Source: Candidatus Methanomethylicia archaeon
GTDB lineage: Archaea; Thermoproteota; Methanomethylicia; CALHIW01
Direction of reading: 5' to 3'
Length of the DNA stretch: 64,000 bases
NCBI GenBank assembly: GCA_038845975.1
Contig: JAWBQF010000001.1
Coordinates: 32,733-96,732 of the forward strand
Each line of letters starts with the position of its first letter. Positions within the stretch are counted from its first letter, which is position 1. The translations under genes and the position numbers were made by a program. The notes under the pieces are model-generated. The model was not told where the DNA came from and made no database searches. It was given only the letters and a program-made list of their open reading frames with translations. Positions 27,991 through 61,101 of the stretch are shown here, in pieces.

Positions 27991-28668
27991 TTACCCTATT
28001 CTATGTAAAGCAATGATTCTAAGATCATCTCCTGCTCTCTTCATATAGTCAACAGCGTTCTCCATAGCGTAGACGATGTCTCTTAATTGAAGTATTGCTA
28101 CTATAGGTATATTGCTTTCAGCTATTTTTAAATCAAGTACTCTTCTAATTTCATCTACTTTCTCCTCCTCTATATCTATCTTATCACATAATTCAACAGC
28201 TCTTTTAACATTTACGGAGTATGCAAAAATAGAATCCCTTAAGGCATCATATGTGAATAATACTCCTTCAGCTAGTTTTTTCAAATCATATATAACTTCA
28301 GCTGGTGGAAATATTTCCCTTTCACTACTTAAATATATTCTATAAGCTGCACTTATAATATAATCTGACATCGAGTCAAGATTAATAGCAAGTCTAACCC
28401 AGTCTTCTCGGTAGACCATTCCTAACCCTACTCTTGAAATATATTCGTAAAGTTGCTTTTTTAATTCCTCTGCTTCAAGATCAAGTTTTCTAAGTCTACT
28501 ATATATTATTTTAGCATCCTCCTTTGAATGGTTTGAAAACTTATCTATAGCGGAAATAAGTTCCCTAATCTGTTCACCAATTTTTCTAACATGGTCTTGT
28601 ATTAAAGATAGTATTTTTTGATCTGCTATAGTTCCCATACTTTCAGGCATTAAACTCATAAGTCTCAA
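27991..28668 (-). CDS. DUF47/PhoU-like protein
   Basis: REDW..LA..LD..SD and EEKVDE..E.A.D helical-bundle motifs. Confidence 0.8.
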   Translation of the reverse strand: MRLMSLMPESMGTIADQKILSLIQDHVRKIGEQIRELISAIDKFSNHSKEDAKIIYSRLRKLDLEAEELKKQLYEYISRVGLGMVYREDWVRLAINLDSMSDYIISAAYRIYLSSEREIFPPAEVIYDLKKLAEGVLFTYDALRDSIFAYSVNVKRAVELCDKIDIEEEKVDEIRRVLDLKIAESNIPIVAILQLRDIVYAMENAVDYMKRAGDDLRIIALHRIG

Positions 28669-28971
28669 TTGAAGTATAACAAACCATATTTAAGCTTTTA
28701 TGTTTCAGCTATGAGTAATGGTCTAAATAATATTTAATATTAAGCTAATACTGAAAATAATTTTGAACGTATTATTTTACTCTATGAACTTTGAAAAGTA
28801 TATGTAGTTGATAGCTTAATTTATCAGAACAGTATTATTGATGCTGTTAATCTTAGATAAAGTAATATTTAAACTTTAGAAAGCTTATATAATCTATATT
28901 AAGGAATATACTAAGTTCACAGAGCCACACTATAAAGGAAAAGTATTAATATCTGAATCTATAAATTCACG

Positions 28972-30693
28972 GTGTCAATAAGTTTATATGATCGTATTGT
29001 AGACTTAGCAAGGAGAAGAGGTTTTTTCTGGCCGTCTAGTGAAATATATGGTGGTGTTAGTGGATTTATTGACTTCGGCCCCTTAGGTTTTCTACTTAAA
29101 AAAAATATTGAAGAGAAATGGCGTAAATGGTTTATTTTAAGACATCAAGACTTTATTTATGAAATTGAAACACCCATAATTATGCCTGAAAGAGTTTTTG
29201 AAGCATCAGGCCATCTACAGCATTTTACTGATACTATTGTTGAATGCTTAAACTGTAGGAGAAAGTTTAGAGCAGATCATTTAATTGAGGTAGCTACTGG
29301 ATTAAAGAATTTGGAGGGTTATACTCCAAGTCAGCTTGTAGAGATTATTAGAAACAGAAATATAAAATGCCCTGAATGTGGAGGTGAGCTTAGCGATGTT
29401 AGAACTTTTTTACTACTATTTAAAACGAATATAGGTCCATACAATGAAAGCATTGGATATGCTAGACCTGAAGCAGCTCAAGGTATGTTTACAACATTTA
29501 TGAGAATATTTAGAACGCAGAGAGAAAAGCTTCCTATAGGTATTGCTCAAGTTGGAAAGGTTCTACGTAATGAAATATCGCCTAGACAGGGATTAATAAG
29601 ACTTAGAGAATTTACGATAATGGAGTTAGAGTTGTTTTTTGATAAAAACAATCCATCATGTGATCTTATAAATGAATATCTAAATGAGAAATTGAGATTA
29701 TTACCGGAAGTTATGGTGGAGAAAGCTATTGAAGAGGGAATTGAGGTAACTGTTGATGAAGCTTTAAAGAAGGGTTACATTCTAAATCCCTGGAATGCCT
29801 ACTTTATGGTCTTAGCGAAGAAATTCATATTAGAGCTTGGTGTTAGTGAAAATAAACAGCGATTCGTAGCTAAGCTTAAATCTGAAAGAGCTCATTACTC
29901 AGCTCAAACATATGATCAGCAAGTACTTGTAGATAAATGGGGATGGATTGAGGTTTCAGGTCATGCATATAGAACAGATTATGATCTTAGAAGACATATG
30001 ATTTTCAGCGGTCAAGAAATGTATGTACATAAGAAGCTTAGCCATCAGATGGATGTTGAGGTTATTGAAGCTATACCTAAAATAGATTTAATTAAGGAGA
30101 AATACCCTAAAGACTTTAATAACGTTATTAAAATATTAAGGGAGATAGACTCTGATTTTCTTAAAAAAGCTTTAGATGAATTGGGTAAATATAATGTTAA
30201 GGGTTTTGAAATTACAAGAGATATTGTTGAGTTTAAGGCAAGTAGAACTCTAAGTAGTAGTAGGAAATTTATTCCAAATGTGGCTGAGCCATCATTTGGA
30301 CTTGAGAGGCTAGTATATATAGTAATGGAAAATGCATATAGTGAAGTTAATAATAGGGTAGTCTTAAAACTACCAAGAGACATAGCTCCAATACAGGTAA
30401 TAGTACTTCCTCTAGTAAATAGAGGAGGAATACCGGAGAAGGCTATATACATATGTAAAATGTTGAGAAACAATGGATTTATAACTGAGTATGATGATAA
30501 GGGAAGTATAGGTAGAAGATATGCTAGAGCTGATGAAATTGGAATACCAGTTGCAATAACAATTGATGGGCAAACACTAGAAGATAATACTGTAACTGTA
30601 AGAGATAGAGATACATGGAAGCAAGTTAGAGTAAGAATTGACGAATTACCCAACTTTATAAAAAACTTCATAGAGAAAGGCATCAATATTTAA
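28972..30693 (+). CDS. glyS: Glycyl-tRNA synthetase (alpha2 type)
   Basis: RRGFFWPS.EIYGG, RNEISPRQGLIRLREF, EPSFGLER and GSIGRRYARADE motifs. Confidence 0.97.
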   Translation: MSISLYDRIVDLARRRGFFWPSSEIYGGVSGFIDFGPLGFLLKKNIEEKWRKWFILRHQDFIYEIETPIIMPERVFEASGHLQHFTDTIVECLNCRRKFRADHLIEVATGLKNLEGYTPSQLVEIIRNRNIKCPECGGELSDVRTFLLLFKTNIGPYNESIGYARPEAAQGMFTTFMRIFRTQREKLPIGIAQVGKVLRNEISPRQGLIRLREFTIMELELFFDKNNPSCDLINEYLNEKLRLLPEVMVEKAIEEGIEVTVDEALKKGYILNPWNAYFMVLAKKFILELGVSENKQRFVAKLKSERAHYSAQTYDQQVLVDKWGWIEVSGHAYRTDYDLRRHMIFSGQEMYVHKKLSHQMDVEVIEAIPKIDLIKEKYPKDFNNVIKILREIDSDFLKKALDELGKYNVKGFEITRDIVEFKASRTLSSSRKFIPNVAEPSFGLERLVYIVMENAYSEVNNRVVLKLPRDIAPIQVIVLPLVNRGGIPEKAIYICKMLRNNGFITEYDDKGSIGRRYARADEIGIPVAITIDGQTLEDNTVTVRDRDTWKQVRVRIDELPNFIKNFIEKGINI

Positions 30694-30726
30694 ATATGAA
30701 TCCTATTAGCTTAATTACAGATCCCT

Positions 30727-31002
30727 ATGGCAATTCAAAAATGGGTTGAAAAAAGATTAAAAGTCAGGGGTAAAGATAATGTTCCTAAAGGCTATGCTAG
30801 AATAAATCCTGAAACAATGAAAATTTTAAACATAGTAGATGAGGTTGAAGGAGTTGTTGCTGGAAAACGGAAATTCATATATAAGGTTATGCCGTCTGAA
30901 AATGTACCTGTAAATGAGGTATGGTGTAATACTGAAGATATGAAGATATTAGGAATGGCTGATGGAACTATAACAACTATTAGAAAACCATTAAGAAAAT
31001 AG
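30727..31002 (+). CDS. Stand-alone double-psi beta-barrel protein resembling the CDC48/VAT N-terminal domain
   Basis: Internal duplication ARINPETMKILNI / VWCNTEDMKILGMADG. Confidence 0.6.
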   Translation: MAIQKWVEKRLKVRGKDNVPKGYARINPETMKILNIVDEVEGVVAGKRKFIYKVMPSENVPVNEVWCNTEDMKILGMADGTITTIRKPLRK

Positions 31003-31175
31003 CTATGTAAAATTAACATTTAGGTTTAAGAAGATTTAGTTCATCTATTTTAGATGATATATTAAGCGGTAGTTATGGAATTTATAACATTATATCAAGT
31101 ATTACTTCCCAATCTAAATCTATAATTGTTATGCTAAAATTTAAATTTAAGAATTTCTTCAGCCTATAGGTTAAA

Positions 31176-33215
31176 ATGATGAGATATATAAAGTTTGCAT
31201 TGATTATGCTTAATATACTTCTAATCACAATATTAATACCTTTAAATAGCGGTTTAAGTAGTGAAACTCTTATCATTTATACACGTAAAGGGGATGGTAA
31301 AAGTCCGTTCTTAGCAGGAAATATAATAATAAAAGATTCTGAAGGTATTATTGTCGCGAATATTAATAATCCAAATTATTTAGGAAATGTATCAGATCCG
31401 CTTACAATGGGTTATGTTTTTACACTGCCCGTAGGAACATATCATATTGAAGTTTATAGGTTTAATATACTTGTAGGTAAATCCACAGTAGAGCTTATAA
31501 AAGGTAGGAACATAACGTTAACATGTGATGTTTTAGATCTACCAGTAGTACTAGTTGAAGAAGCAAACCAGGAGGTTCCAGTTGGAAACGTAACATTAAA
31601 GATATATAGTAGTAAAAGCATTCTTATAGAAGAGGTATTAGTAGGCTCTAATGGTAAGTATATAGTTCACGACTTACCATATGGTGAATATATTTTTAAA
31701 GTGTTTAAATTCAATATAACCATAGCTGAGGAGAAATGTAAAATAATATCGTACCATATAAATTCAACATCTCAGCTTAGTATTAAATGCAAGGTTGGAG
31801 ATTTAAGCGTTAAACTTATAGATCAAAATGGACGTATGGTTGATGAAGGAGTATTAGAGGTTATGATTAACAATTATCTATACGATTCTGCGAGGGTTAG
31901 TCAAGGTAAAGTCTTATTTAGACAGATACCAGTAGATTACTTATTAGGATCTACAAACATAAATTTACATTTTAAAGTATACGGTATACCTGTAAGCATT
32001 AACATGACAACAATACATATGAATAACTCTAAAAGCATAGTTATTCAATCCATGCTTTACGATTTAAGTATTAAACTTAATGATCTAGCTAATAGGATAG
32101 TAAATAATGCTACCCTAATTTTAATTAGGAATAATTTAGAGATTAAAAGCTTTAATGTAGATGAAGGAAAACTTACAATAACCCAAATTCCAGAAGGTAA
32201 ATATGTATTAGTTGCTAAAAGATTCAATATTTCAATAGCTGAGAAGGAAGTTACAGTACGTGCAGATTCAAGTCTAGTAATAAATTGTAAAGTTGCTGAT
32301 GTTGTATTATCTGTTTTTGATAAGTATGGTAAACCTATAAGCCAGGTTAAAATCAATTTACTACATAATGGACTACTTCTAGCATCTAATATATCTGTAA
32401 ATGAAACAATAAGACAGCTTCCACTATCAAAGTATACTGCTAACCTATGGCGTGAAGGAGTTCCAGTAGGTAATTACTTAGTAGATTTAACTACTTACAC
32501 TGAGCCGTCTATAACTTACGAAATTAGAAATATATCTTTACCTTCTTTAACTATTAACTGTATTGATTTAAATGGTAAGCCAATACTTAACTTTAAGATT
32601 TTAATCTATGATTTAATGATTGGTAATCCAGTAGAGGCTACAACTAGTAATGGCTACATATTACTTAGCGATTTATGGCCTGGTAAATATGTTGTTATGG
32701 CTGAGTTTGAAGTGGCTGTGGGTTCTGAAGTTTTTAATGTTAAGTCAAGCAGAAATATAGTTGACGTACCTGGAACATCCTTATCTACAAATTATGTTCT
32801 AATATGTCCATTAAACATTAATGGAGTAGTAAAAGTTGTAGATGCTTATGGTAATCCAATACCACATATTCCAGTTAATATCACTACTATAATCAATTCT
32901 AGGAGTTATACATGGATTAGAGATACTGACGAAGATGGTATAGCTAGGTTTAATGGCTTATTTGGTTCTAAATATTTGATTCAGATATATGTTGGAGGAA
33001 TACTGCGTTCAATGCAAGTTATAGAGTACTCCAATAACTTTAATGTAGAGTTAAAAATATACTCTGTACAGTTAACACCATTCGGTATTCTTGAAGTATG
33101 GTTTATACAGTTAATGACATACATCATATTAATTGTAGTTTTATCATTAATACTTTATTATGCATTTAAGAAGCTTAGGAAAACGGAGAAAAAGCTTTTC
33201 CTAAATAGTTACTAA
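31176..33215 (+). CDS. Membrane-anchored surface protein with tandem carboxypeptidase-regulatory/transthyretin-like domains
   Basis: Signal peptide, about 80-aa repeats (L.V.L.D..G..LP.G.Y), C-terminal TM followed by basic residues. Confidence 0.75.
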   Translation: MMRYIKFALIMLNILLITILIPLNSGLSSETLIIYTRKGDGKSPFLAGNIIIKDSEGIIVANINNPNYLGNVSDPLTMGYVFTLPVGTYHIEVYRFNILVGKSTVELIKGRNITLTCDVLDLPVVLVEEANQEVPVGNVTLKIYSSKSILIEEVLVGSNGKYIVHDLPYGEYIFKVFKFNITIAEEKCKIISYHINSTSQLSIKCKVGDLSVKLIDQNGRMVDEGVLEVMINNYLYDSARVSQGKVLFRQIPVDYLLGSTNINLHFKVYGIPVSINMTTIHMNNSKSIVIQSMLYDLSIKLNDLANRIVNNATLILIRNNLEIKSFNVDEGKLTITQIPEGKYVLVAKRFNISIAEKEVTVRADSSLVINCKVADVVLSVFDKYGKPISQVKINLLHNGLLLASNISVNETIRQLPLSKYTANLWREGVPVGNYLVDLTTYTEPSITYEIRNISLPSLTINCIDLNGKPILNFKILIYDLMIGNPVEATTSNGYILLSDLWPGKYVVMAEFEVAVGSEVFNVKSSRNIVDVPGTSLSTNYVLICPLNINGVVKVVDAYGNPIPHIPVNITTIINSRSYTWIRDTDEDGIARFNGLFGSKYLIQIYVGGILRSMQVIEYSNNFNVELKIYSVQLTPFGILEVWFIQLMTYIILIVVLSLILYYAFKKLRKTEKKLFLNSY

Positions 33216-34616
33216 TAATTTTATTTCCTCGATAGCTTTAAGTAAGTTCTCTCCCTTATCAGTTAATGAGTATACTTTTCTTCTTCCAACTATTTGGGAT
33301 CTAATTAAGCCTAACTTTTCCAATTCATTTAGATGTTGATATATCGCTTGTATCTTTATGATTCTCCCAATTCTCTTCCATATTTCATAACCATGCATAT
33401 TTCTCATACTTAGAACATTTAGTATCTTAACCTTTGTCGATGCATATATGTTAAATTTTCCCCATCCTCTTTCATAAGCTCCAATAAGATCTATAGTTTT
33501 AAGTCCACTTCCACTTATGAAGCATAGTATTGTTTCATCTTTTTCAAATACTTCCTGACCTGAAAGCTTTTCAAGAGCTGCAATTGTAGATGCTGCGGCG
33601 GGCTCTACAAATAATCCTTCAAGCTTTGATAAGTTTTTCTGGCTTCTTAAAATATCCTCATCTGAAACTGATACAGCTATTCCTCTACTATCTTTTAAGG
33701 CTTCTAATGCTCTGTTACCGTAGAGTGGATTTGCAATACATATTCCTGAAGCTATTGTCTGCGGATTTTTAGCCTTAACTATTTCTGAAGATTTTAAAAA
33801 CGCTGTAACTATTGGGGAACATCCCTCCGCTTGTACAGCTATAAGTCTAGGTTTTCTTTCAATCAATCTCATTTCGTAGGCTTCACTAAACCCCTTCCAA
33901 ATTGAATAAATTATTGATCCACTACCTGTCGGGCATATAATCCAGTCAGGTACTCCTACTTGCTCAATTAATTCATACGCGATTGTTTTCTGTGCTTCAA
34001 TAGATATTGGGTTAAGCTCAGGTGTTCCCTGATACCAGCCGCTTCCTTCCCCCCTCATAGCTTTCAATATTGCTTCATCAATTGTTTCACCAACCTGCTC
34101 TATAATTCCACCATACATTATTATTTGTGCTAGTTTTCCAATATCAACATACATTGGAGCATATACATAGCATGTAAGCCCAGCCTTAGCTACATAAGCA
34201 GCTAAAGATGCACCCATGTTACCGTTTGATGCACAAATTACTACCTCATAGCCCCAGTCAACAGCTCTAGACGATACTATTGAGGCAGCTCTATCTCTAA
34301 ATGAACCAGTAGGATTTCTTGAATCATCCTTTACATAGACTTCCTTAGCCATAATTCTCAAACTGTTTTTCAGCCTCTTAATAGGATATGTTGGAGTAAA
34401 ACCCTCATTCAGGCTAATCGTGTTATTAATTTTAGGTAGTAGTTTCCTATACCTCCATATTGACCCCATATTATCTAGAACATTATAAAAATCAACATCC
34501 TCCAAGTTATATCTATATTCAAGCTGTATACCACATTTAGTACACCTATATGTACCTGGCTTCTCTTTATACTCCAATTTACACTGCGGACAAATCAATG
34601 TGTAAACAATATTCAA
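33201..34616 (-). CDS. Threonine-synthase-like protein with Lys-to-Arg at the PLP site, fused to a PadR/ArsR-like wHTH
   Basis: Zn ribbon, NPTGSFRDR, EGLFVEPAAA and ISGSGLK motifs; C-terminal MHGYEIW..IYQHLNELEKLGLI..YSLTDKG. Confidence 0.85.
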   Translation of the reverse strand: MNIVYTLICPQCKLEYKEKPGTYRCTKCGIQLEYRYNLEDVDFYNVLDNMGSIWRYRKLLPKINNTISLNEGFTPTYPIKRLKNSLRIMAKEVYVKDDSRNPTGSFRDRAASIVSSRAVDWGYEVVICASNGNMGASLAAYVAKAGLTCYVYAPMYVDIGKLAQIIMYGGIIEQVGETIDEAILKAMRGEGSGWYQGTPELNPISIEAQKTIAYELIEQVGVPDWIICPTGSGSIIYSIWKGFSEAYEMRLIERKPRLIAVQAEGCSPIVTAFLKSSEIVKAKNPQTIASGICIANPLYGNRALEALKDSRGIAVSVSDEDILRSQKNLSKLEGLFVEPAAASTIAALEKLSGQEVFEKDETILCFISGSGLKTIDLIGAYERGWGKFNIYASTKVKILNVLSMRNMHGYEIWKRIGRIIKIQAIYQHLNELEKLGLIRSQIVGRRKVYSLTDKGENLLKAIEEIKLLVTI

Positions 34617-35387
34617 ATTAACACCCTATTAACCATTATAAAGTTATTAGTAAATTTAAGTATTTCCATAAACTTGATGAGTGTAGTAGTTTAAGAAGCT
34701 ATATGAATTGCTGTCAATATTGTAGAAGTCTTTAAGAGAAGTAAGACCCCATTGGAGATTAAATATTTGATGATTTTCTACATATAGATTTTTAGAATAG
34801 TTTAGGACATTATTTAATCATGGGTATCTAGATAGCTATCGGTAGGTAAGTAAGCTTAAAGGAGAATAGAAATACTAGGTTTATGGTTAGAAGGATAATA
34901 TGATAGTTTAAGAGTCTATCATAAAAGAACATTATGATGTTAAGGTTATTTAGTAATTAAATTATTGTAATGAAAGCAATATCCTCATTGGCAATATATC
35001 ATGGCTTTCTTGAGAGCTTGGACTACCATTGCTAAATCTTATCAGTAAGAGGAGTGTAGTAATGTCATGTATCCATTATTTAGTAGACTGGAGGATTTTT
35101 AATTAATAACATTAACTCAATAAACCACTATATAATAGGAGGGCGCTTAAATACTGGAATCTATTCATACTGTATAAACCGCCTAAAAAGCATGTTAAGC
35201 CTTAGTACCCGGCTTAATTAAAGTCAGTAGAGCTATTAGAATAACTTTTCTCTTGATTCTAAGTCTTTATGGCTTAAGAACAGTTTAGATAGTTTAAGAG
35301 AAGGATTATAGTTAAATAGATTTTGAATATGCTGAAGCTAATGAAAGATTTAAATATTGTTACTAAACTTAGGAGTAAAATTATTTC

Positions 35388-36155
35388 ATGATGTTAATTA
35401 TGAATGCTTTTGCTATTATCGGTAAAAGAAGAGGAGTAGGTAAGACTGAGCTAGGATTGAAAATTGTTAGGTATCTGAAAGACCGGAATATTCCTGTTGT
35501 TGTTATTAAACACGCACATAAAATAGATCTAGATGATAAAGACTCTTTTAAGTACTTCGATGTAGGAGCAGACAATGTAATTACAGTTTCTAGTGATTTT
35601 ACGTTAACTATAAGCAAACCAGCTAGGAGTATTGAAGATTTCAGTAGAAGTATTGATAGCGTAGTGGTTATTGAAGGATTTAAAACATCAAACTTACCTA
35701 AAATAATTGTTGCTAGAAATCTTGATGATTTAAACTTTAGGTTTAATGGTTATGTGATTGCAGCTGTGGTTTCTGAAGATCTTATAGATAAAGCTAGAGA
35801 AATTTTTCCAGGAAGTAATGTATTATCATTCAATGATTTAAATGCTTTAAGTAGATTATTTAGGGATGTAACATTAAAGGCTTTAATAAGTATTCTTCCA
35901 AACATAGACTGTAGAATATGTGGTTACTCTACATGTTTAGACTTTGCTAAAAATATTGTTGATGGTGTAGATGATATCTACAAGTGTGTTAAGTATCATG
36001 ATGATATTATAGTTAAAGTTAATGGTTTAAGGCTTAATTTAGGTAAGTTTCCACGGGAAATTTTAAAAAACATACTAATAGCTTATTTAAAAACTCTTAA
36101 GGGTATTCCTGAAAAACTGAATGAAATTGAAGTTTACATTAAAAATAAACAGTAG
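35388..36155 (+). CDS. mobB: MobB-family protein with a 4Fe-4S domain
   Basis: GVGKT, VIKHAH and IEGFK motifs; LPNIDCRICGYSTC..C. Confidence 0.82.
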   Translation: MMLIMNAFAIIGKRRGVGKTELGLKIVRYLKDRNIPVVVIKHAHKIDLDDKDSFKYFDVGADNVITVSSDFTLTISKPARSIEDFSRSIDSVVVIEGFKTSNLPKIIVARNLDDLNFRFNGYVIAAVVSEDLIDKAREIFPGSNVLSFNDLNALSRLFRDVTLKALISILPNIDCRICGYSTCLDFAKNIVDGVDDIYKCVKYHDDIIVKVNGLRLNLGKFPREILKNILIAYLKTLKGIPEKLNEIEVYIKNKQ

Positions 36156-36347
36156 CCAATTAATGCTCTGTCATATCTAGTAGATAGTCAATTGATTAAT
36201 GTTTATCTAATTATATATCTTAAATGTTGCCAATAGATTTTATTTTATCTCCAGCCATTCAACTTCACTTAATAGAAAAATATTTCAAATCCTCATCATT
36301 AATTAATAACTCTTATAAGTAGTAAAATCCTAATTTATAAAGGGCTA

Positions 36348-36986
36348 ATGAATTTTAATTCATCATCAAATAATTTAGTAAGTAAACCAAGACTTAGCTT
36401 ATGGGAGAGAATATATAGGAAAATTAATCCAATACCGTTAAGAAATCAGATTGTAAATACACTTATTAAACTAAATGTTCAGAAGAATAGACTGTCTCAT
36501 GGCAGAGCTGAGCTTGAAGCTATAGCTAGAAACATCTATAATTGGATTTCTGAAGCTAAAGTTAGCAGTGATTGGAATAAAGTTAAAATTTATGTTAATG
36601 AATATGTAGAAATTAGAAAGATATGTAAACTCATAGTTGAGGCGGAGCTTGTTTTAGAGGCTACTTTACTAAGACTAGAAACAGTTAAAAGCTTTAGTGA
36701 TATTGCAGCTGCAATAACCCCCTTACAAACAGTAGTTAATACGCTAAGATCAGAGTTTGCAGATTCCATACCTAAACTATCTGCTGAATTTTCAGGGGTG
36801 TTTGAAAGTATTAAGTCAATCATGATTGAAATATTTGAAACCTCCTCAAACCTATATAGAGAAACTATAATAGATGAAGCTGAAAAAATACTTAAGGCAG
36901 CATCAATAGCTGCAGATCAGAGGATTAATGAGAAATTACCGGAAATACCTATACAGGAGCTAGTTCCAGAAAAAGTTGAATCTTAA
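36348..36986 (+). CDS. Third ESCRT-III/Snf7 (CdvB) paralogue
   Basis: YVNEYVEIRK..LE..LRLETV and EAEKIL..A..ADQRINEKLPEIP align with the other two paralogues. Confidence 0.82.
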   Translation: MNFNSSSNNLVSKPRLSLWERIYRKINPIPLRNQIVNTLIKLNVQKNRLSHGRAELEAIARNIYNWISEAKVSSDWNKVKIYVNEYVEIRKICKLIVEAELVLEATLLRLETVKSFSDIAAAITPLQTVVNTLRSEFADSIPKLSAEFSGVFESIKSIMIEIFETSSNLYRETIIDEAEKILKAASIAADQRINEKLPEIPIQELVPEKVES

Positions 36987-37075
36987 ACATTAAGGTTAGA
37001 CTGACTGATTTTATTTTCTAACAAACTTTCAGAAGGTTTAAATTTTATTTCTCTAGAAATTATAGGGCTCAAACT

Positions 37076-37348
37076 ATGTGTAGTGAAGAGTTTATAGAGA
37101 AAATATCAAGAGCAATTAATAGATATAATATGTATAGAGATAAGGAAGCTAATGCTAAATTAATATTTGCTAGTAGAAATAAAATTATAATTGAATTTTC
37201 AGGCTCATTTTGCTATTCATGTGGTTTTTACGATTGGATTGATGATTTGAGATATGAACTTATAGATGAGCTTAATTTAGATATTAAAATATCATCCATA
37301 GATGAAATTAAGCTTGGTGTTTATAGCGTTGTATACACATTAAGCTAA
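37076..37348 (+). CDS. Small NifU-C-like CxxC protein
   Basis: IEFSGSFCYSCG motif. Confidence 0.55.
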   Translation: MCSEEFIEKISRAINRYNMYRDKEANAKLIFASRNKIIIEFSGSFCYSCGFYDWIDDLRYELIDELNLDIKISSIDEIKLGVYSVVYTLS

Positions 37349-37580
37349 TATACAATTATATTATGAACTAAATTACATAATGGTAATCAATTTGATTTAT
37401 TTCCACTAACTACTATTAATAGTGAAATCTTAGGATATTTCCATATCAGTTTGTCTCAGCAACACTGTATTGTAAACTTTAGCTTTATTCAGAGTTCTCT
37501 TCCCTTTTATGACGAATTTATTGTTAAAGTTATTAGTTTTGTTAGAAAGAACTTCACTTATTCCATTTGTATGGTACCCA

Positions 37581-37640
37581 GGCTTTGTGAACTTAAGCAA
37601 TCAATTACATGTACTTCTCACATTTAAAGTCCACAAAGCC
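37581..37640. mobile_element. 60-bp MITE, best-preserved copy of a dispersed family
   Basis: TIRs GGCTTTGTGAACTT / AAGTCCACAAAGCC, matching the ends of the IS6-like family A. Confidence 0.75.
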
Positions 37641-37696
37641 GATCTTCAAGAGGTAAGCTTTAATCTCTAATTGTTAAATTATACTGGTGATCTATT

Positions 37697-38860
37697 ATTT
37701 ACTTTAGTAGAGTTAAGAGAGTAAAGTGTTTAACATGTGGTAAAGAATCCCTAGGTATATCAGAGGTTCTTGGAGTATGTAGGGAATGTATTATTAGTAG
37801 GTTTGATGAAGTACTACCATACATTCACCAAGCTCATGTTAAGGCTAGGTCTATGTACGGTTTACCTATTAGTCCACCAAGGGATAGTAAAGGAATACGA
37901 TGTAATATATGTTCAAATCAATGTACTATTAGTTCTGGAGGAAAAGGGTATTGTGGATTAAGACTTAATATTAATGGTAGACTTCAATGTAAAGTTACAA
38001 GTAGTAAAGCCCTATTATATGCATATAAAGATCCACATGTAACGAATTGTTGTGCAGCGTATTTTTGTCCTGCTGGTACTGGAATTGGCTATCCTAGATT
38101 CGCTTATACTCATGGTCCTGAATATGGATACTATAATTATGCTGTCTTCTTCTATGGTTGTAACTTTTCATGTTTATATTGCCAAAATTTTTCACATAAG
38201 AATTTGTTTGAAGCTACCGAGATCGACATTGAAAGCTTTACTAAAGCTATTATTAGGGATCGATTAATATCTTGTATATGCTATTTTGGCGGTTCTCCTG
38301 AACCAAGCTTACCATTTGCTATAGCTGCTTCTAGAAGAGTTCTTGAGGAATGTCATAAACGAATTATTAGAATATGTTTTGAATGGAATGGTTGTGGGAA
38401 TAAGATACTTGTAAGAAGAGCATCTGAGCTTTCTCTTATATCTGGTGGAAATATAAAATTTGATCTTAAGTGCTTTGATGAAAGGCTAAGTATAGCATTA
38501 AGCGGCGTTTCAAATAGGCAAGCATATGAAAACTTTAAACTTATTGCTGAAGAGTATTATCCACAGAGAAGAAGTATACCTGTTTTGAACGCTACAACTT
38601 TACTTGTACCTGAATATGTTAATGCAGATGAAGTTGAGAAAATAGCCCTATTTATAAGCGAGATAAATGATGAAATACCCTATAGCCTCCTTATCTTTTA
38701 TCCCAACTTTATGATGACTGATATGCCTATAACACCATTAAAGCAAGTTATTGAATGCTATAAAGTAGCTAAGAAATATTTAAAAAACGTTCATGTTGGA
38801 AATTTACACTTAATAGGTTTTAAATCAATGCAACATTTCCGATCAGTTATAAATAATTAA
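37697..38860 (+). CDS. Radical SAM protein (PflA/AmmeMemoRadiSam-like) with N-terminal Cys clusters
   Basis: GCNFSCLYCQN and FGGSPEP motifs; the frame is open upstream of 37853 (CLTC..GVCREC), so the start is uncertain. Confidence 0.85.
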   Translation: MYFSRVKRVKCLTCGKESLGISEVLGVCRECIISRFDEVLPYIHQAHVKARSMYGLPISPPRDSKGIRCNICSNQCTISSGGKGYCGLRLNINGRLQCKVTSSKALLYAYKDPHVTNCCAAYFCPAGTGIGYPRFAYTHGPEYGYYNYAVFFYGCNFSCLYCQNFSHKNLFEATEIDIESFTKAIIRDRLISCICYFGGSPEPSLPFAIAASRRVLEECHKRIIRICFEWNGCGNKILVRRASELSLISGGNIKFDLKCFDERLSIALSGVSNRQAYENFKLIAEEYYPQRRSIPVLNATTLLVPEYVNADEVEKIALFISEINDEIPYSLLIFYPNFMMTDMPITPLKQVIECYKVAKKYLKNVHVGNLHLIGFKSMQHFRSVINN

Positions 38861-39060
38861 ATTCTGATCTAAACTTAAAATCTCAACATTCCCTATAATT
38901 TTATTAACTATTATAAACTCAACAAGAAGTTTAGAACTTTAGTTCTGAATGTCCCTGTGAACTTAGGTAATCAACTACGTTTATCATTAACCTAGAGAGT
39001 TGCTTTTACTCCTCTACGTTTAAAATAATCTCTTATCTCTCTAGTATTGTATGCTGAGTT

Positions 39061-39746
39061 GGCTTTGTTAACTTAAGCATGTTTTATCGCCTCTATTTTG
39101 GTATTGTGCTTCTATTAATTCTTAGCTTTATCTTCTTATTAATCCATGTTTGTTTAATGTATACTGTTGACTTCATAAGTATTGATACATATTCATTATC
39201 ACGTTTATCTTTCAAAGGTATGTAGTTATCGAATAGTTTAGTCCTATCCTTAATGTACTGTATTATCTTCTCCATTAATTCCAACTTCTAAACTATATAA
39301 TGTTTTAATTTTAATATTCTACATGCTATAATAATGAGCATAATCACTCAATACAACTATATTAGAACCATGGATAGTTTTAACCTTTTAATGTTGGGGA
39401 TGTAAGCATGTTTGCAGCATCACAAACCCATACATATAGAATCCTTCTTAATAATGACTCAAACGAACATAAATAACCTCCTCTTAGAACCCACGATTAC
39501 AATAGATCAACCATAATCCTAACATCCCTCCTATCAAATCCAAACAGCTTAAGATAAACCATAATATGGATACATAACTCCCAACAACAATAAACTAAAT
39601 TCTGAAGCCATTTCAGATGAACGAAAATATAAGCAATAAACAACTAAAGTAAATGGAGTTCTCTCCCAACAAATCTAATAACCTTAGACATAAACACACC
39701 ATAAATAAAGGAGAGAAACCCAAATAAAGCTAAAGTTAACAAAGCC
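39061..39746 (-). mobile_element. Decayed IS6-family element (family A)
   Basis: TIRs GGCTTTGTTAACTT / AAGTTAACAAAGCC; perfect 8-bp TSD GCTGAGTT; residual EKIIQYIKDRTKLFDNY. Confidence 0.85.
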
Positions 39747-39933
39747 GCTGAGTTACCGTAACCTCTTTAGGTCTATTTCTAAATCTATCATGCCTAACCC
39801 TTACATAAACCTTACTAACTAAATAGATAATAAATAACCAAATTCATGAATCCTATGTATAGCCCCATAGCTTAATAGCCTAAAACTACAACTAGAAAAA
39901 TAAATTAATAAAGCCTAAAGTACAGATATAAAT

Positions 39934-39996
39934 AATGTTCTTACCCTAACAAAGAATCCATAACCACAAATCATAACAATATAGGGTAAGAACATT
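39934..39996. repeat. 15-bp perfect inverted repeat delimiting a 63-bp mini-element
   Basis: AATGTTCTTACCCTA ... TAGGGTAAGAACATT. Confidence 0.7.
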
Positions 39997-40084
39997 CTTG
40001 CTTAAACTTCTAAAGTTAACAGGACAACGCATTGAGGATTAAAAATTTAAGTATCTGTCATTCTCTATTATACTTGGTGATTAT

Positions 40085-59477: not shown

Positions 59478-59870
59478 ATGGCTCTATGTGAAATTTGTGG
59501 AGTAAAAAGCTCAAGATATGTTTGTCAAAAATGCGGAAGAAGAATATGTGAATCCTGCGTTAACATCTATAGCTGGATTTGTAGTGAATGCTATAGTAAA
59601 ACTGAACCGCAGATAATCGAGGAACATAAAGGCATAGAGTTACCGGTAAAGCTCTTCATTATAGGGTTCGTAACGATATTTATAGGTATGATGCTAATAG
59701 CTTTCGGCTCTTTAATATTAGGTGCTAAAGTTAGTGGGGGGATAGTAATATTTCCATTTATACCAGTACCCATAGTATTTGGCTTTGGATCTGAAGCTAT
59801 TTTAATGATTATTATTGCTATGCTATTGATATTAATGATTATAACCATAATTAAAACTATTAAGTTTTAG
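59478..59870 (+). CDS. Zn-finger plus DUF131-like membrane protein
   Basis: Four CxxC pairs followed by TM-GGIVIFPFIPVPIVFG-TM. Confidence 0.75.
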   Translation: MALCEICGVKSSRYVCQKCGRRICESCVNIYSWICSECYSKTEPQIIEEHKGIELPVKLFIIGFVTIFIGMMLIAFGSLILGAKVSGGIVIFPFIPVPIVFGFGSEAILMIIIAMLLILMIITIIKTIKF

Positions 59871-61101
59871 CACTTGAATAATTTACTTTAAGTAGCTGCT
59901 TTATTACTTTGCTTACCTCCTTAGACTTAACGCTAGTAATAGATTCTGTATATTTAGCCACTACGTTGGGGTCTTTTAATCCATGACCTGTAGCTATACA
60001 TACTGTAAGATCATTTCTATCTATAATCTTCTCTTCTAAGAGCTTTCTTAATCCTGCTATTGATGCTGCTGAGGCAGGCTCAACAAATATTCCCTCAAGT
60101 CTTGCTAGAAGTTTTTGAGCTTCAAGTATTTCCGTATCTGAAACAGATATAGCATAACCCTTTGAAGAGTATATAGCATTTAAAGCTTTCTTCCAGTTTA
60201 CTGGATTACCAATCCTTATTGCTGTTGCAATTGTTTCAGGGTTTTCTATGGGCTCTAGATGTTTTAAACCGTCTCTAAAAGCATTGACAATTGGTGAAGC
60301 TCCCTCAGCCTGTACTCCAATCATTCTGGGAATACTTTCCGTTAATTTATATTGTTTAAGTTCTACAAATCCTTTAAATATTGCACTTATATTTCCAGCA
60401 TTACCTACAGGAACCACAACAACATCAGGTACAGATCCAAGCTGATCATATATTTCGTAGGCTATTGTCTTCTGGCCTTCAAGCCTAAATGGATTTATAG
60501 AGTTAAGAATATATAATCTATGTTTCTCAGCCACTTTCCTCACTATACTTAAAGCTTCATCAAAACTGCCATTAACAGATATAATATTAGCTCCATAAAT
60601 AATTGCTTGAGAAAGCTTTCCAAGAGCAACCTTACCATGAGGCAATATGACAAAACATTTTAATCCAGCTCTAGCAGCATAAGCTGCAAGAGAAGCAGAA
60701 GTATTTCCTGTAGATGCACATATAACTGCGAATGCTCCATGCTCAATAGCTTTAGATATACCAACAGTCATCCCCCTATCCTTGAAGGAACCGGTAGGAT
60801 TACCACCCTCATTCTTAACATATAGTTCACGTAAACCAAAATACTCTCTAATTTTACCACAACGATATAGTATAGTTCCACCTTCACCAAGAGATACTAT
60901 GTTAGCTATACTGTTAATAGGTAGAAGCTCAAAATATCTCCAAACACCAATTCTCCTACTCATCCATCTACTACAAAGATCGCTTGGAGGGTTTAAATAC
61001 AGAACATCAAGCAATCCCCCACAATCACATAGAATCCTATCATCATCATATATTGAGCTGCATTCAATACACTTAAGCCTATACTTAACCATAAACAACA
61101 C
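59860..61101 (-). CDS. thrC: Threonine synthase
   Basis: NPTGSFKDRG (PLP Lys intact), ASTGNTS, NSINPFRLEGQKT, PVGNAGN and TGHGLKDP motifs. Confidence 0.93.
   Translation of the reverse strand: MLFMVKYRLKCIECSSIYDDDRILCDCGGLLDVLYLNPPSDLCSRWMSRRIGVWRYFELLPINSIANIVSLGEGGTILYRCGKIREYFGLRELYVKNEGGNPTGSFKDRGMTVGISKAIEHGAFAVICASTGNTSASLAAYAARAGLKCFVILPHGKVALGKLSQAIIYGANIISVNGSFDEALSIVRKVAEKHRLYILNSINPFRLEGQKTIAYEIYDQLGSVPDVVVVPVGNAGNISAIFKGFVELKQYKLTESIPRMIGVQAEGASPIVNAFRDGLKHLEPIENPETIATAIRIGNPVNWKKALNAIYSSKGYAISVSDTEILEAQKLLARLEGIFVEPASAASIAGLRKLLEEKIIDRNDLTVCIATGHGLKDPNVVAKYTESITSVKSKEVSKVIKQLLKVNYSSAKT

Follow-up and report, generated by a model that had tools for sequence, protein, structure and literature searches.

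The window analysed here, a 64,000-nucleotide (64-kb) stretch of a Candidatus Methanomethylicia archaeon genome (GenBank assembly GCA_038845975.1, contig JAWBQF010000001.1, positions 32,733 to 96,732), carries a gene whose product joins a threonine synthase (ThrC)-like domain to a C-terminal winged helix-turn-helix (wHTH) domain. At the position of the lysine that forms the Schiff base with pyridoxal 5'-phosphate (PLP) in the enzyme, this product has arginine. An earlier note, made from the sequence alone, had proposed that an enzyme scaffold is reused here as the sensor of a one-component regulator, and the analysis below follows that proposal. For brevity the protein is called the regulator, a name that anticipates the interpretation. 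The parts of its gene, and a canonical ThrC encoded elsewhere in the window that serves as comparator, are as follows.

33201..34616, minus strand: whole gene of the lysine-less ThrC-fold/PadR fusion (open reading frame (ORF) of 471 amino acids plus stop, TTG start)
34500..34595, minus strand: N-terminal four-cysteine zinc ribbon, residues 8-39 (weak Zn_Ribbon_TF match, E 0.002)
33510..34418, minus strand: fold-type II PLP-enzyme (ThrC-like) domain, residues 67-369, the proposed ligand sensor (PALP, E 5.4e-66)
34296..34298, minus strand: AGA codon of Arg107 at the position of the PLP Schiff-base lysine (codon reading; alignment to the K of GSFKDR in 2zsj and 2d1f)
33441..33503, minus strand: low-confidence linker, residues 372-392 (predicted local distance difference test (pLDDT) below 50 in the model; disordered)
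33237..33425, minus strand: PadR-type wHTH, residues 398-460, followed by a C-terminal helix (PF03551, E 3.2e-10)
59860..61101, minus strand: comparator, canonical threonine synthase with GSFKDR, 413 amino acids (TIGR00260, 352.6 bits against a cut-off of 167.1)

The PF03551 match reaches 40.3 bits against a Pfam gathering cut-off of 27, which places the domain that the earlier note had described as PadR/ArsR-like in the PadR type. PALP and PadR were the domains found by Pfam on the regulator, and neither a GntR nor an aminotransferase domain was found. An AlphaFold model of the 471-residue protein, built on 36 family members, has a mean pLDDT of 84.2 and a predicted template modelling score (pTM) of 0.77. 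Its C-terminus is modelled as helices at 394-404, 409-416, and 422-434, a hairpin at 438-451, and a last helix at 453-470. In the alignment of the 36 members, mean column identity is 67%, and both C9, C12, C25, and C28 of the zinc ribbon and A424, Y426, Q427, H428, L429, and L432 of the proposed recognition helix are invariant (36/36). The segments that the earlier note had listed as altered, GSFRDR with its AGA codon as well as ASNGNM, TPELNP, and PTGSGS, were all located in the translation, and the paralogue was likewise found to carry GSFKDR. This paralogue also has an N-terminal zinc ribbon, and it clusters with unfused, lysine-bearing proteins in the tree described below.

An assembly error, in which the reads would show AAA, had been named as a possible cause of the arginine. 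The AGA codon was unchanged in contigs of four sequencing runs from four studies, although runs X1 and X5 are possibly the source of this DNA and are then not independent. Run X14 represents a different strain, with 30 other differences across the 1416 bases, and it keeps AGA; the reading frame is intact in two strains. The arginine is therefore no artefact of assembly. Arginine and both Pfam domains were present in 120/120 of the best homologues, which are mostly from Bathyarchaeia.

The regulator passes the threonine-synthase cut-off of TIGR00260 (209.8 vs 167.1 bits) with Arg107 in place of the lysine of the S-F-K-D-R motif of threonine synthases. It falls just under the cut-off of NF004170/PRK05638, a profile also named threonine synthase (418.8 bits vs 421), with residues 8-462 matching profile positions 3-441 of 442. 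Since this match takes in the winged helix, the fused architecture is already present in a curated model under the threonine synthase name, and that name appears to be a misnomer for a profile that spans the fusion. Database labels of family members always read threonine synthase or PLP-dependent enzyme, and the source names of these members include Bathyarchaeia, Lokiarchaeota, Helarchaeota, Baldrarchaeia, Promethearchaeota, Thermoprotei, and Thermococcus chitonophagus; one Thermococcus homologue is WP_068578498.1. Among solved structures, the closest are true ThrC enzymes, with no fused protein among them: the best relative is Aquifex ThrC 2zsj (sequence E 7.8e-62; 40% identity in the structural match), and the best Foldseek matches of the model are ThrC structures with target-normalised TM-scores of 0.83-0.86. 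A full-text literature search, which did not extend to subscription journals and supplements, found neither a description of this family nor an archaeal regulator responsive to vitamin B6.

Lysine and winged helix across the family

To relate the lysine to the fusion more widely, 150 best representatives of 50% clusters were combined with the query and the window's ThrC (152 rows), and in each row the residue in the column of position 107 was read and the wHTH was scored with a profile derived from alignment A1. Lysine was found in 78/78 full-length unfused representatives, and the window's unfused ThrC also has it. The 71 wHTH-bearing rows hold 15 arginines, 18 leucines, 15 isoleucines, 5 threonines, 4 methionines, 4 valines, 3 phenylalanines, and only 2 lysines; serine, alanine, tyrosine, and asparagine occur once each, and one fragment lacks the position. 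Such chemically unrelated replacements argue that the position has no catalytic role in these proteins. Two rows have arginine and no wHTH match, namely P0200, a fragment of 247 amino acids, and P0128, which has 467 amino acids and a match that ends at query residue 335. The earlier note had suggested that arginine and the wHTH might co-segregate. One half of this held, in that loss of the lysine tracks the fusion (lysine in 2/71 fused vs 78/78 unfused rows), and the other did not: arginine itself is not the marker, and among these rows it is loss of lysine, not arginine as such, that the wHTH accompanies. In a second sample of 40 Thermoproteota loci, lysine was observed in 0/40 regulators.

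A FastTree tree was built from 148 rows using enzyme-domain columns only, with the lysine column masked; P0200, P0128, and other rows under 340 amino acids were left out. The fused rows form an arginine-rich clade of 22 rows with support 100, which contains the window's protein, and a clade of 47 rows with support 98, which carries hydrophobic or threonine replacements, while a single fused row, P0137, is placed apart. The fused label needs two changes on this tree, and the starred branches force only one. A single origin of the fusion would be compatible with it.

Pocket residues were compared between 70 fused and 78 unfused rows. At position 133 the fused rows have 63 asparagines and 7 aspartates, G231 is kept in 66/70 and G233 in 70/70, and position 368 is threonine in 67 and serine in 2; we take N133, G231, G233, and T368 to be cofactor contacts of fold-type II enzymes. 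Residue 205, which presumably binds the substrate phosphate in ThrC, is arginine in the window's ThrC and in 30/78 unfused rows. The most frequent residues there in the 70 fused rows are leucine (18), phenylalanine (17), and serine (11). The regulator itself has serine at 205, where the window's ThrC has arginine, and asparagine at 131, where the ThrC has threonine. Fold-type II enzymes need the Schiff-base lysine both for the internal aldimine and for proton transfer. The residues compared above fit a pocket that may still take PLP non-covalently and may no longer take O-phosphohomoserine.

Neighbouring genes and candidate operators

A search with the single protein gave no relatives; an alignment-based search gave 338 loci in species genomes, and neighbourhoods were counted at the best 80 of these together with the window (81 loci). 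With a minimum open frame of 430 amino acids per row, about 66/201 Thermoproteota genomes have the regulator. In 72/81 loci it is followed on the same strand by a gene for the S component of an energy-coupling factor (ECF) transporter (PF07155, E down to 3e-32), and in 47/81 a gene related to aminoimidazole ribonucleotide (AIR) synthase (PF00586/PF02769) comes next after that. The AIR-synthase-like protein has weak NCBIfam matches to HypE, ThiL, and SelD, all below cut-off, and could be a salvage enzyme, so far overlooked, that acts on the imported compound. Examples of its gene lie at L066:10006-11013, at L072:3146-4159, and at C19:47094-48122 in the window's own genome (G000), outside the window. 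In the second sample of 40 loci the S component adjoins the regulator in 31, in co-directional, divergent, and convergent layouts. A lysine-bearing thrC lies upstream on the opposite strand in 23/81 loci, within 200 bp in 14 of these.

The spacers between the regulator's stop and the ECF S-component gene share a palindromic candidate operator, TAGTATAGTTNNAACTATACTA, which is present with at most 3 mismatches in 58/67 loci and with at most 5 in 63/67, and which sits directly after a TATA-like box. A profile made from these sites reaches 14 bits or more in 63/67 of the spacers vs 0/79 regions upstream of the regulator, a set that includes all thrC-facing spacers. In five Bathyarchaeial genomes of about 3 Mb, TAGTATAGTTNNAACTATACTA with at most 3 mismatches was observed exactly once per genome, at the regulator locus, and the reversed control gave 0. 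K-mer and inverted-repeat searches upstream of the regulator at 80 loci found no common operator. One recurrent sequence there, GGAAAATCTAAATG, was set aside as a candidate: it looks like a ribosome site and the start of a divergent tetratricopeptide repeat (TPR) gene.

In the second sample, 8 of the 17 Arg-type loci have the 22-bp palindrome. The 23 non-Arg loci (340 kb) have a different one, CCTATATATAGG, which with at most 1 mismatch occurs at 16 sites vs about 1 in shuffles, and 13 of the 16, in 12 loci, lie no more than 160 bp from the regulator start. At locus L135 (genome G105) a perfect CCTATATATAGG, the sole perfect copy in that genome, stands between the regulator and a divergent pdxS-pdxT pair. 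A given operator type is therefore found ahead of an ECF S-component gene in some genomes and ahead of the B6 synthase genes in G105. Yet another palindrome, the third type, has the core AAAGTTTAAACTTT and was seen between the regulator and the S-component gene in L133, L134, L140, and L144, which all have Arg-type regulators of 435-447 amino acids and belong to one family of Thermoproteota.

In G000 the corresponding genes are not linked to the regulator and lie on another contig, C19, with the S-component gene at 48868-48122 and the AIR-synthase-like gene at 48122-47094 (operon 48868-47094), and with pdxS-pdxT at 26959-25392. Ahead of the S-component gene, a 12-bp palindrome, CTTGTATACAAG, lies between a TATA-like box and the gene's TTG start; it is the sole perfect copy in the 2.77-Mb assembly. 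Downstream of its own TATA-like box, the pdxS promoter has two copies 18 bp apart, one agreeing at 11 of 12 positions and the other at 9 of 12, and the other four G000 matches with at most 1 mismatch are all within ORFs. The control consisted of the 60-bp windows ahead of 2,079 ORFs of G000, called in a crude way. A perfect 12-bp palindrome of some kind is present in 112/2,079 of these windows, mostly composed of A and T only. CTTGTATACAAG with at most 1 mismatch, meanwhile, occurs in exactly 1 of the 2,078 other promoter windows, that of pdxS, a figure that is post hoc, the two promoters inspected being those that the hypothesis names. The palindrome is kept in perfect form before the S-component gene of a same-genus genome (G001), where the flanks differ, and it agrees with CCTATATATAGG at 8/12 positions, symmetrically. 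In G000 the regulator probably acts on the C19 ECF-S operon and on pdxS-pdxT. A further sequence, AAGTTTAAACTT, was noted in the G000 pdxS promoter just before the start codon.

Of 16 regulator-bearing genomes searched for pdxS (PF01680), only G000 and G105 have it, and both have a regulator-type palindrome in the pdxS promoter. No pdxS match was found in G001, G002, G011, G020, G023, G030, G041, G051, G063, G065, G070, G072, G112, and G186, of which 13 are 90-99% complete and one, G001, is 62% complete. Such pdxS-less carriers may depend on imported vitamin B6, and this need fits an S component that carries B6. A PF08543 kinase in G000 was considered as evidence for B6 salvage and rejected as uninformative, because the family covers both ThiD and PdxK.

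The regulator locus in the window is without the neighbours of its relatives, that is, the ECF S component, the AIR-synthase-like gene, and thrC. Its neighbours there are a MobB/Fe-S (iron-sulfur) fusion upstream and a 679-amino-acid membrane-anchored protein downstream. The ORF of the latter (31176-33215, plus strand) has hydrophobic N- and C-terminal stretches and no NCBIfam match; it converges on the regulator gene, overlapping its 3' end by 15 bases, and locus L016, of the same genus, keeps the pair. Between the regulator and the MobB-like gene lies a spacer of 770 bp that holds no ORF of at least 35 amino acids, and Rfam gave nothing in 28000-40000 of the window. About 530 bp of this spacer, window positions 34690-35217, are missing from a same-genus genome (L090, L016). 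Within the extra piece, positions of roughly 270-510 weakly match C1:176000-176167 and C5:17507-17751 of G000 at 67-71% identity.

Besides the regulator, G000 holds three lysine-bearing ThrC-like paralogues: the comparator in the window and two more, at C38:8490-9644 (L003) and C18:17276-18361 (L004), of 462 and 371 amino acids; the 462-residue one is followed by a 459-residue ORF. Catalysis is thus provided elsewhere in this genome, in line with the suggestion of the earlier note that an intact ThrC supplies it. The closest relative of the regulator has 86% identity and is labelled Candidatus Methanomethylicia. Within the class, if a match extending into the wHTH part of NF004170 is read as a fused copy, about 13/31 genomes have one, and two families have only shorter matches.

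Proposed function of the regulator and rival explanations

The protein is very probably a transcription factor and not an enzyme, which bears out the core proposal of the earlier note, that an enzyme scaffold serves as the sensor of a one-component regulator: the lysine has gone where the wHTH is present. That it responds to B6 is a more moderate claim, which we hold to be rather likely. Taken as a whole, the observations are best explained, with a similar, middling degree of confidence, by a ligand-sensing one-component repressor, the ligand probably being vitamin B6. The ThrC-derived domain would be unable to form the internal aldimine once lysine is replaced by arginine. Because the residues by which fold-type II enzymes hold PLP are for the most part kept, we propose that the former active site binds PLP or another phosphorylated B6 vitamer reversibly. 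ThrC enzymes are dimers and the candidate operators are palindromic, and for these reasons a homodimer is proposed, which would bind the operator through its C-terminal PadR wHTH. Archaeal repressors usually block initiation at a site that overlaps the transcription start. When loaded with B6, the regulator would occupy the operator just downstream of the TATA box, overlapping the transcription start, and so block initiation, with repression of the target genes when B6 is plentiful. This sign of regulation is suggested by the position of the operator and by analogy with the bacterial regulator PdxR. As for the ligands listed in the earlier note, PLP or another B6 vitamer is favoured, given that both the ECF S component and pdxS-pdxT neighbour the regulator or are linked to it by motif, while phosphohomoserine is disfavoured by residue 205 and by the 0/79 operator count in the upstream regions.

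Besides the post hoc promoter count in G000, several observations weigh against a B6-responsive repressor. The three palindromes vary by lineage and two of them are TATA-like, and some could be promoter elements, not operators. Genome G063 has a perfect CCTATATATAGG (L163:5627-5638) between the regulator and a divergent gene that is neither ECF-S nor pdxS; its product, of 356 amino acids, has a hydrophobic N-terminus and is taken to be a membrane protein. In three other genomes of that genus no perfect CCTATATATAGG site was found. The Bathyarchaeial operator profile does not exceed chance in G000, with 5 matches of at least 14 bits vs 0-4 in 10 simulated genomes, and the corresponding consensus has no match in the window. 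With at most 2 mismatches, CTTGTATACAAG matches the window twice vs 4.9 expected, with neither match near the regulator or thrC. NCBIfam assigned no substrate to the AIR-synthase-like protein or to the S component, which has weak matches to TIGR04002 and a folate-family model, pdxS-pdxT adjoins the regulator in 1/40 sampled loci (L135), and the thrC adjacency in 23/81 loci keeps a threonine-related role possible. Finally, the lysine is kept in two fused clusters, P0124 (Bathyarchaeota, 62 members) and P0129 (Lokiarchaeota). The earlier note had held that fused homologues with lysine would speak against its proposal, and these two clusters, which nest within the arginine clade, are the exceptions in a family where this otherwise did not occur. 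They may be reversions, which are possible because AGR to AAR is one transition, or forms holding PLP covalently.

These points bear differently on the alternatives. If what the regulator sensed belonged to threonine metabolism, be it O-phosphohomoserine, threonine, or an adduct of PLP with an amino acid, and if it tuned threonine or aspartate-family genes, its descent from ThrC, the upstream thrC at 23/81 loci, and the thrC 25 kb away in the window would find a ready explanation. We nevertheless consider this distinctly improbable, because the operator appears in 63/67 ECF-S spacers and in none of the upstream regions, thrC-facing ones included, because the arginine presumed to bind phosphate in ThrC gives way at residue 205 to leucine, phenylalanine, or serine in fused rows, and because no motif lies near the window's thrC; the adjacency itself may merely mark the tandem duplication that founded the family. 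Regulation of the adjoining ECF importer in response to some vitamin or metabolite other than B6 is unlikely. In its favour, the S component has no assigned specificity, its family PF07155 takes its name from riboflavin carriers, the AIR-synthase-like gene of the same operon is similar to HypE, ThiL, and SelD, and adjacency to pdxS was observed only once in 40 loci. Against this stand the shared palindrome type that precedes ECF-S in some genomes and pdxS in L135, the recurrence of the G000 ECF-S palindrome solely at pdxS among the other promoter windows, the retention by the sensor of positions that we take to be PLP contacts, and the 14/16 genomes without a pdxS match, for which import of B6 would be necessary.

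That the protein is still an enzyme, either a ThrC-like catalyst working without lysine or a bifunctional enzyme and regulator, we judge very improbable. The TIGR00260 score, the conservation of most of the fold and of many pocket residues, and the two lysine-bearing fused clusters speak for it. It is opposed by the contrast between lysine in all 78 full-length unfused relatives and the chemically unrelated residues (R, L, I, V, M, T, F, S, A, Y, and N) in fused ones, by the established dependence of fold-type II enzymes on this lysine, and by the three paralogues in G000 that supply catalysis. Scarcely credible is a decaying thrC duplicate in which the fusion and the lysine loss are functionless accidents. 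The absence of an obvious target linked to the regulator in the window would suit such decay; the frame that is intact in two strains, the column identity and invariant recognition helix across 36 members, and the spread over 338 loci and about a third of the Thermoproteota genomes (66/201) would not.

Beyond the window, we regard as evenly balanced a broader form of the B6-sensing proposal, in which the NF004170 proteins and their relatives would be archaea-wide B6 (PLP)-sensing repressors in Bathyarchaeia, Methanomethylicia, Thermoprotei, Thermococcus, and Asgard. They would have a single origin in a thrC duplicate that gained PadR and lost the lysine, and would form an archaeal counterpart of PdxR; the AIR-synthase-like gene would encode a B6 salvage enzyme, and the ECF S component would be the B6 importer of pdxS-less archaea. 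If the B6-sensing repressor is real, the threonine synthase labels on several hundred archaeal genomes (338 loci) are incorrect, and ThrC copy counts inflate the pathway reconstructions that use them. It would also provide a clean example of a pseudoenzyme as receptor, in which a former fold-type II PLP enzyme senses its cofactor reversibly and both operator and ligand can be tested at the bench. In addition, the finding flags pdxS-less archaea as probably dependent on imported B6.

Comparison with known systems

With ThrC (TIGR00260; PDB 2zsj, 2d1f, 1v7c, and 6nmx) the regulator shares the fold, clear homology, and the N-terminal zinc ribbon of archaeal ThrCs; it differs in having no Schiff-base lysine, in its altered substrate-side residues, and in the added DNA-binding domain. 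With the PadR family (PF03551) it shares a wHTH above the Pfam cut-off, the helix after the wing, and palindromic candidate operators, and the conserved palindromes adjoining family members are consistent with the predicted PadR-type dimer binding. Typical PadR proteins are small and have an N-terminal wHTH, whereas the wHTH here is a C-terminal appendage of an enzyme-like domain of about 380 residues. A conceptual parallel is offered by archaeal ThiR, a vitamin regulator of thiamine genes that reportedly joins a DNA-binding domain to a sensor made from an inactive biosynthetic-enzyme domain; both the fold (ThiN vs ThrC) and the vitamin differ.

The bacterial regulators PdxR, MocR, and GabR have the same design, a PLP-enzyme-derived domain joined to a winged helix in a one-component regulator. 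The parts are not the same. In MocR proteins a GntR-type wHTH at the N-terminus precedes an aminotransferase-like domain of fold type I, and the lysine is kept; in the regulator a fold-type II domain without the lysine is followed by a PadR wHTH at the C-terminus. It is therefore a functional analogue of PdxR built from unrelated parts, not a relative. According to PMC5320631, PdxR regulons contain pdxST, pdxK, and the transporter gene pdxU. The regulon predicted here is similar in kind, with pdxS-pdxT and an ECF S component. PMC5320631 also states that MocR regulators are absent from Archaea, and if the B6-sensing repressor proposed here is real, Archaea gain a B6-responsive regulator where the bacterial type is reported to be absent.

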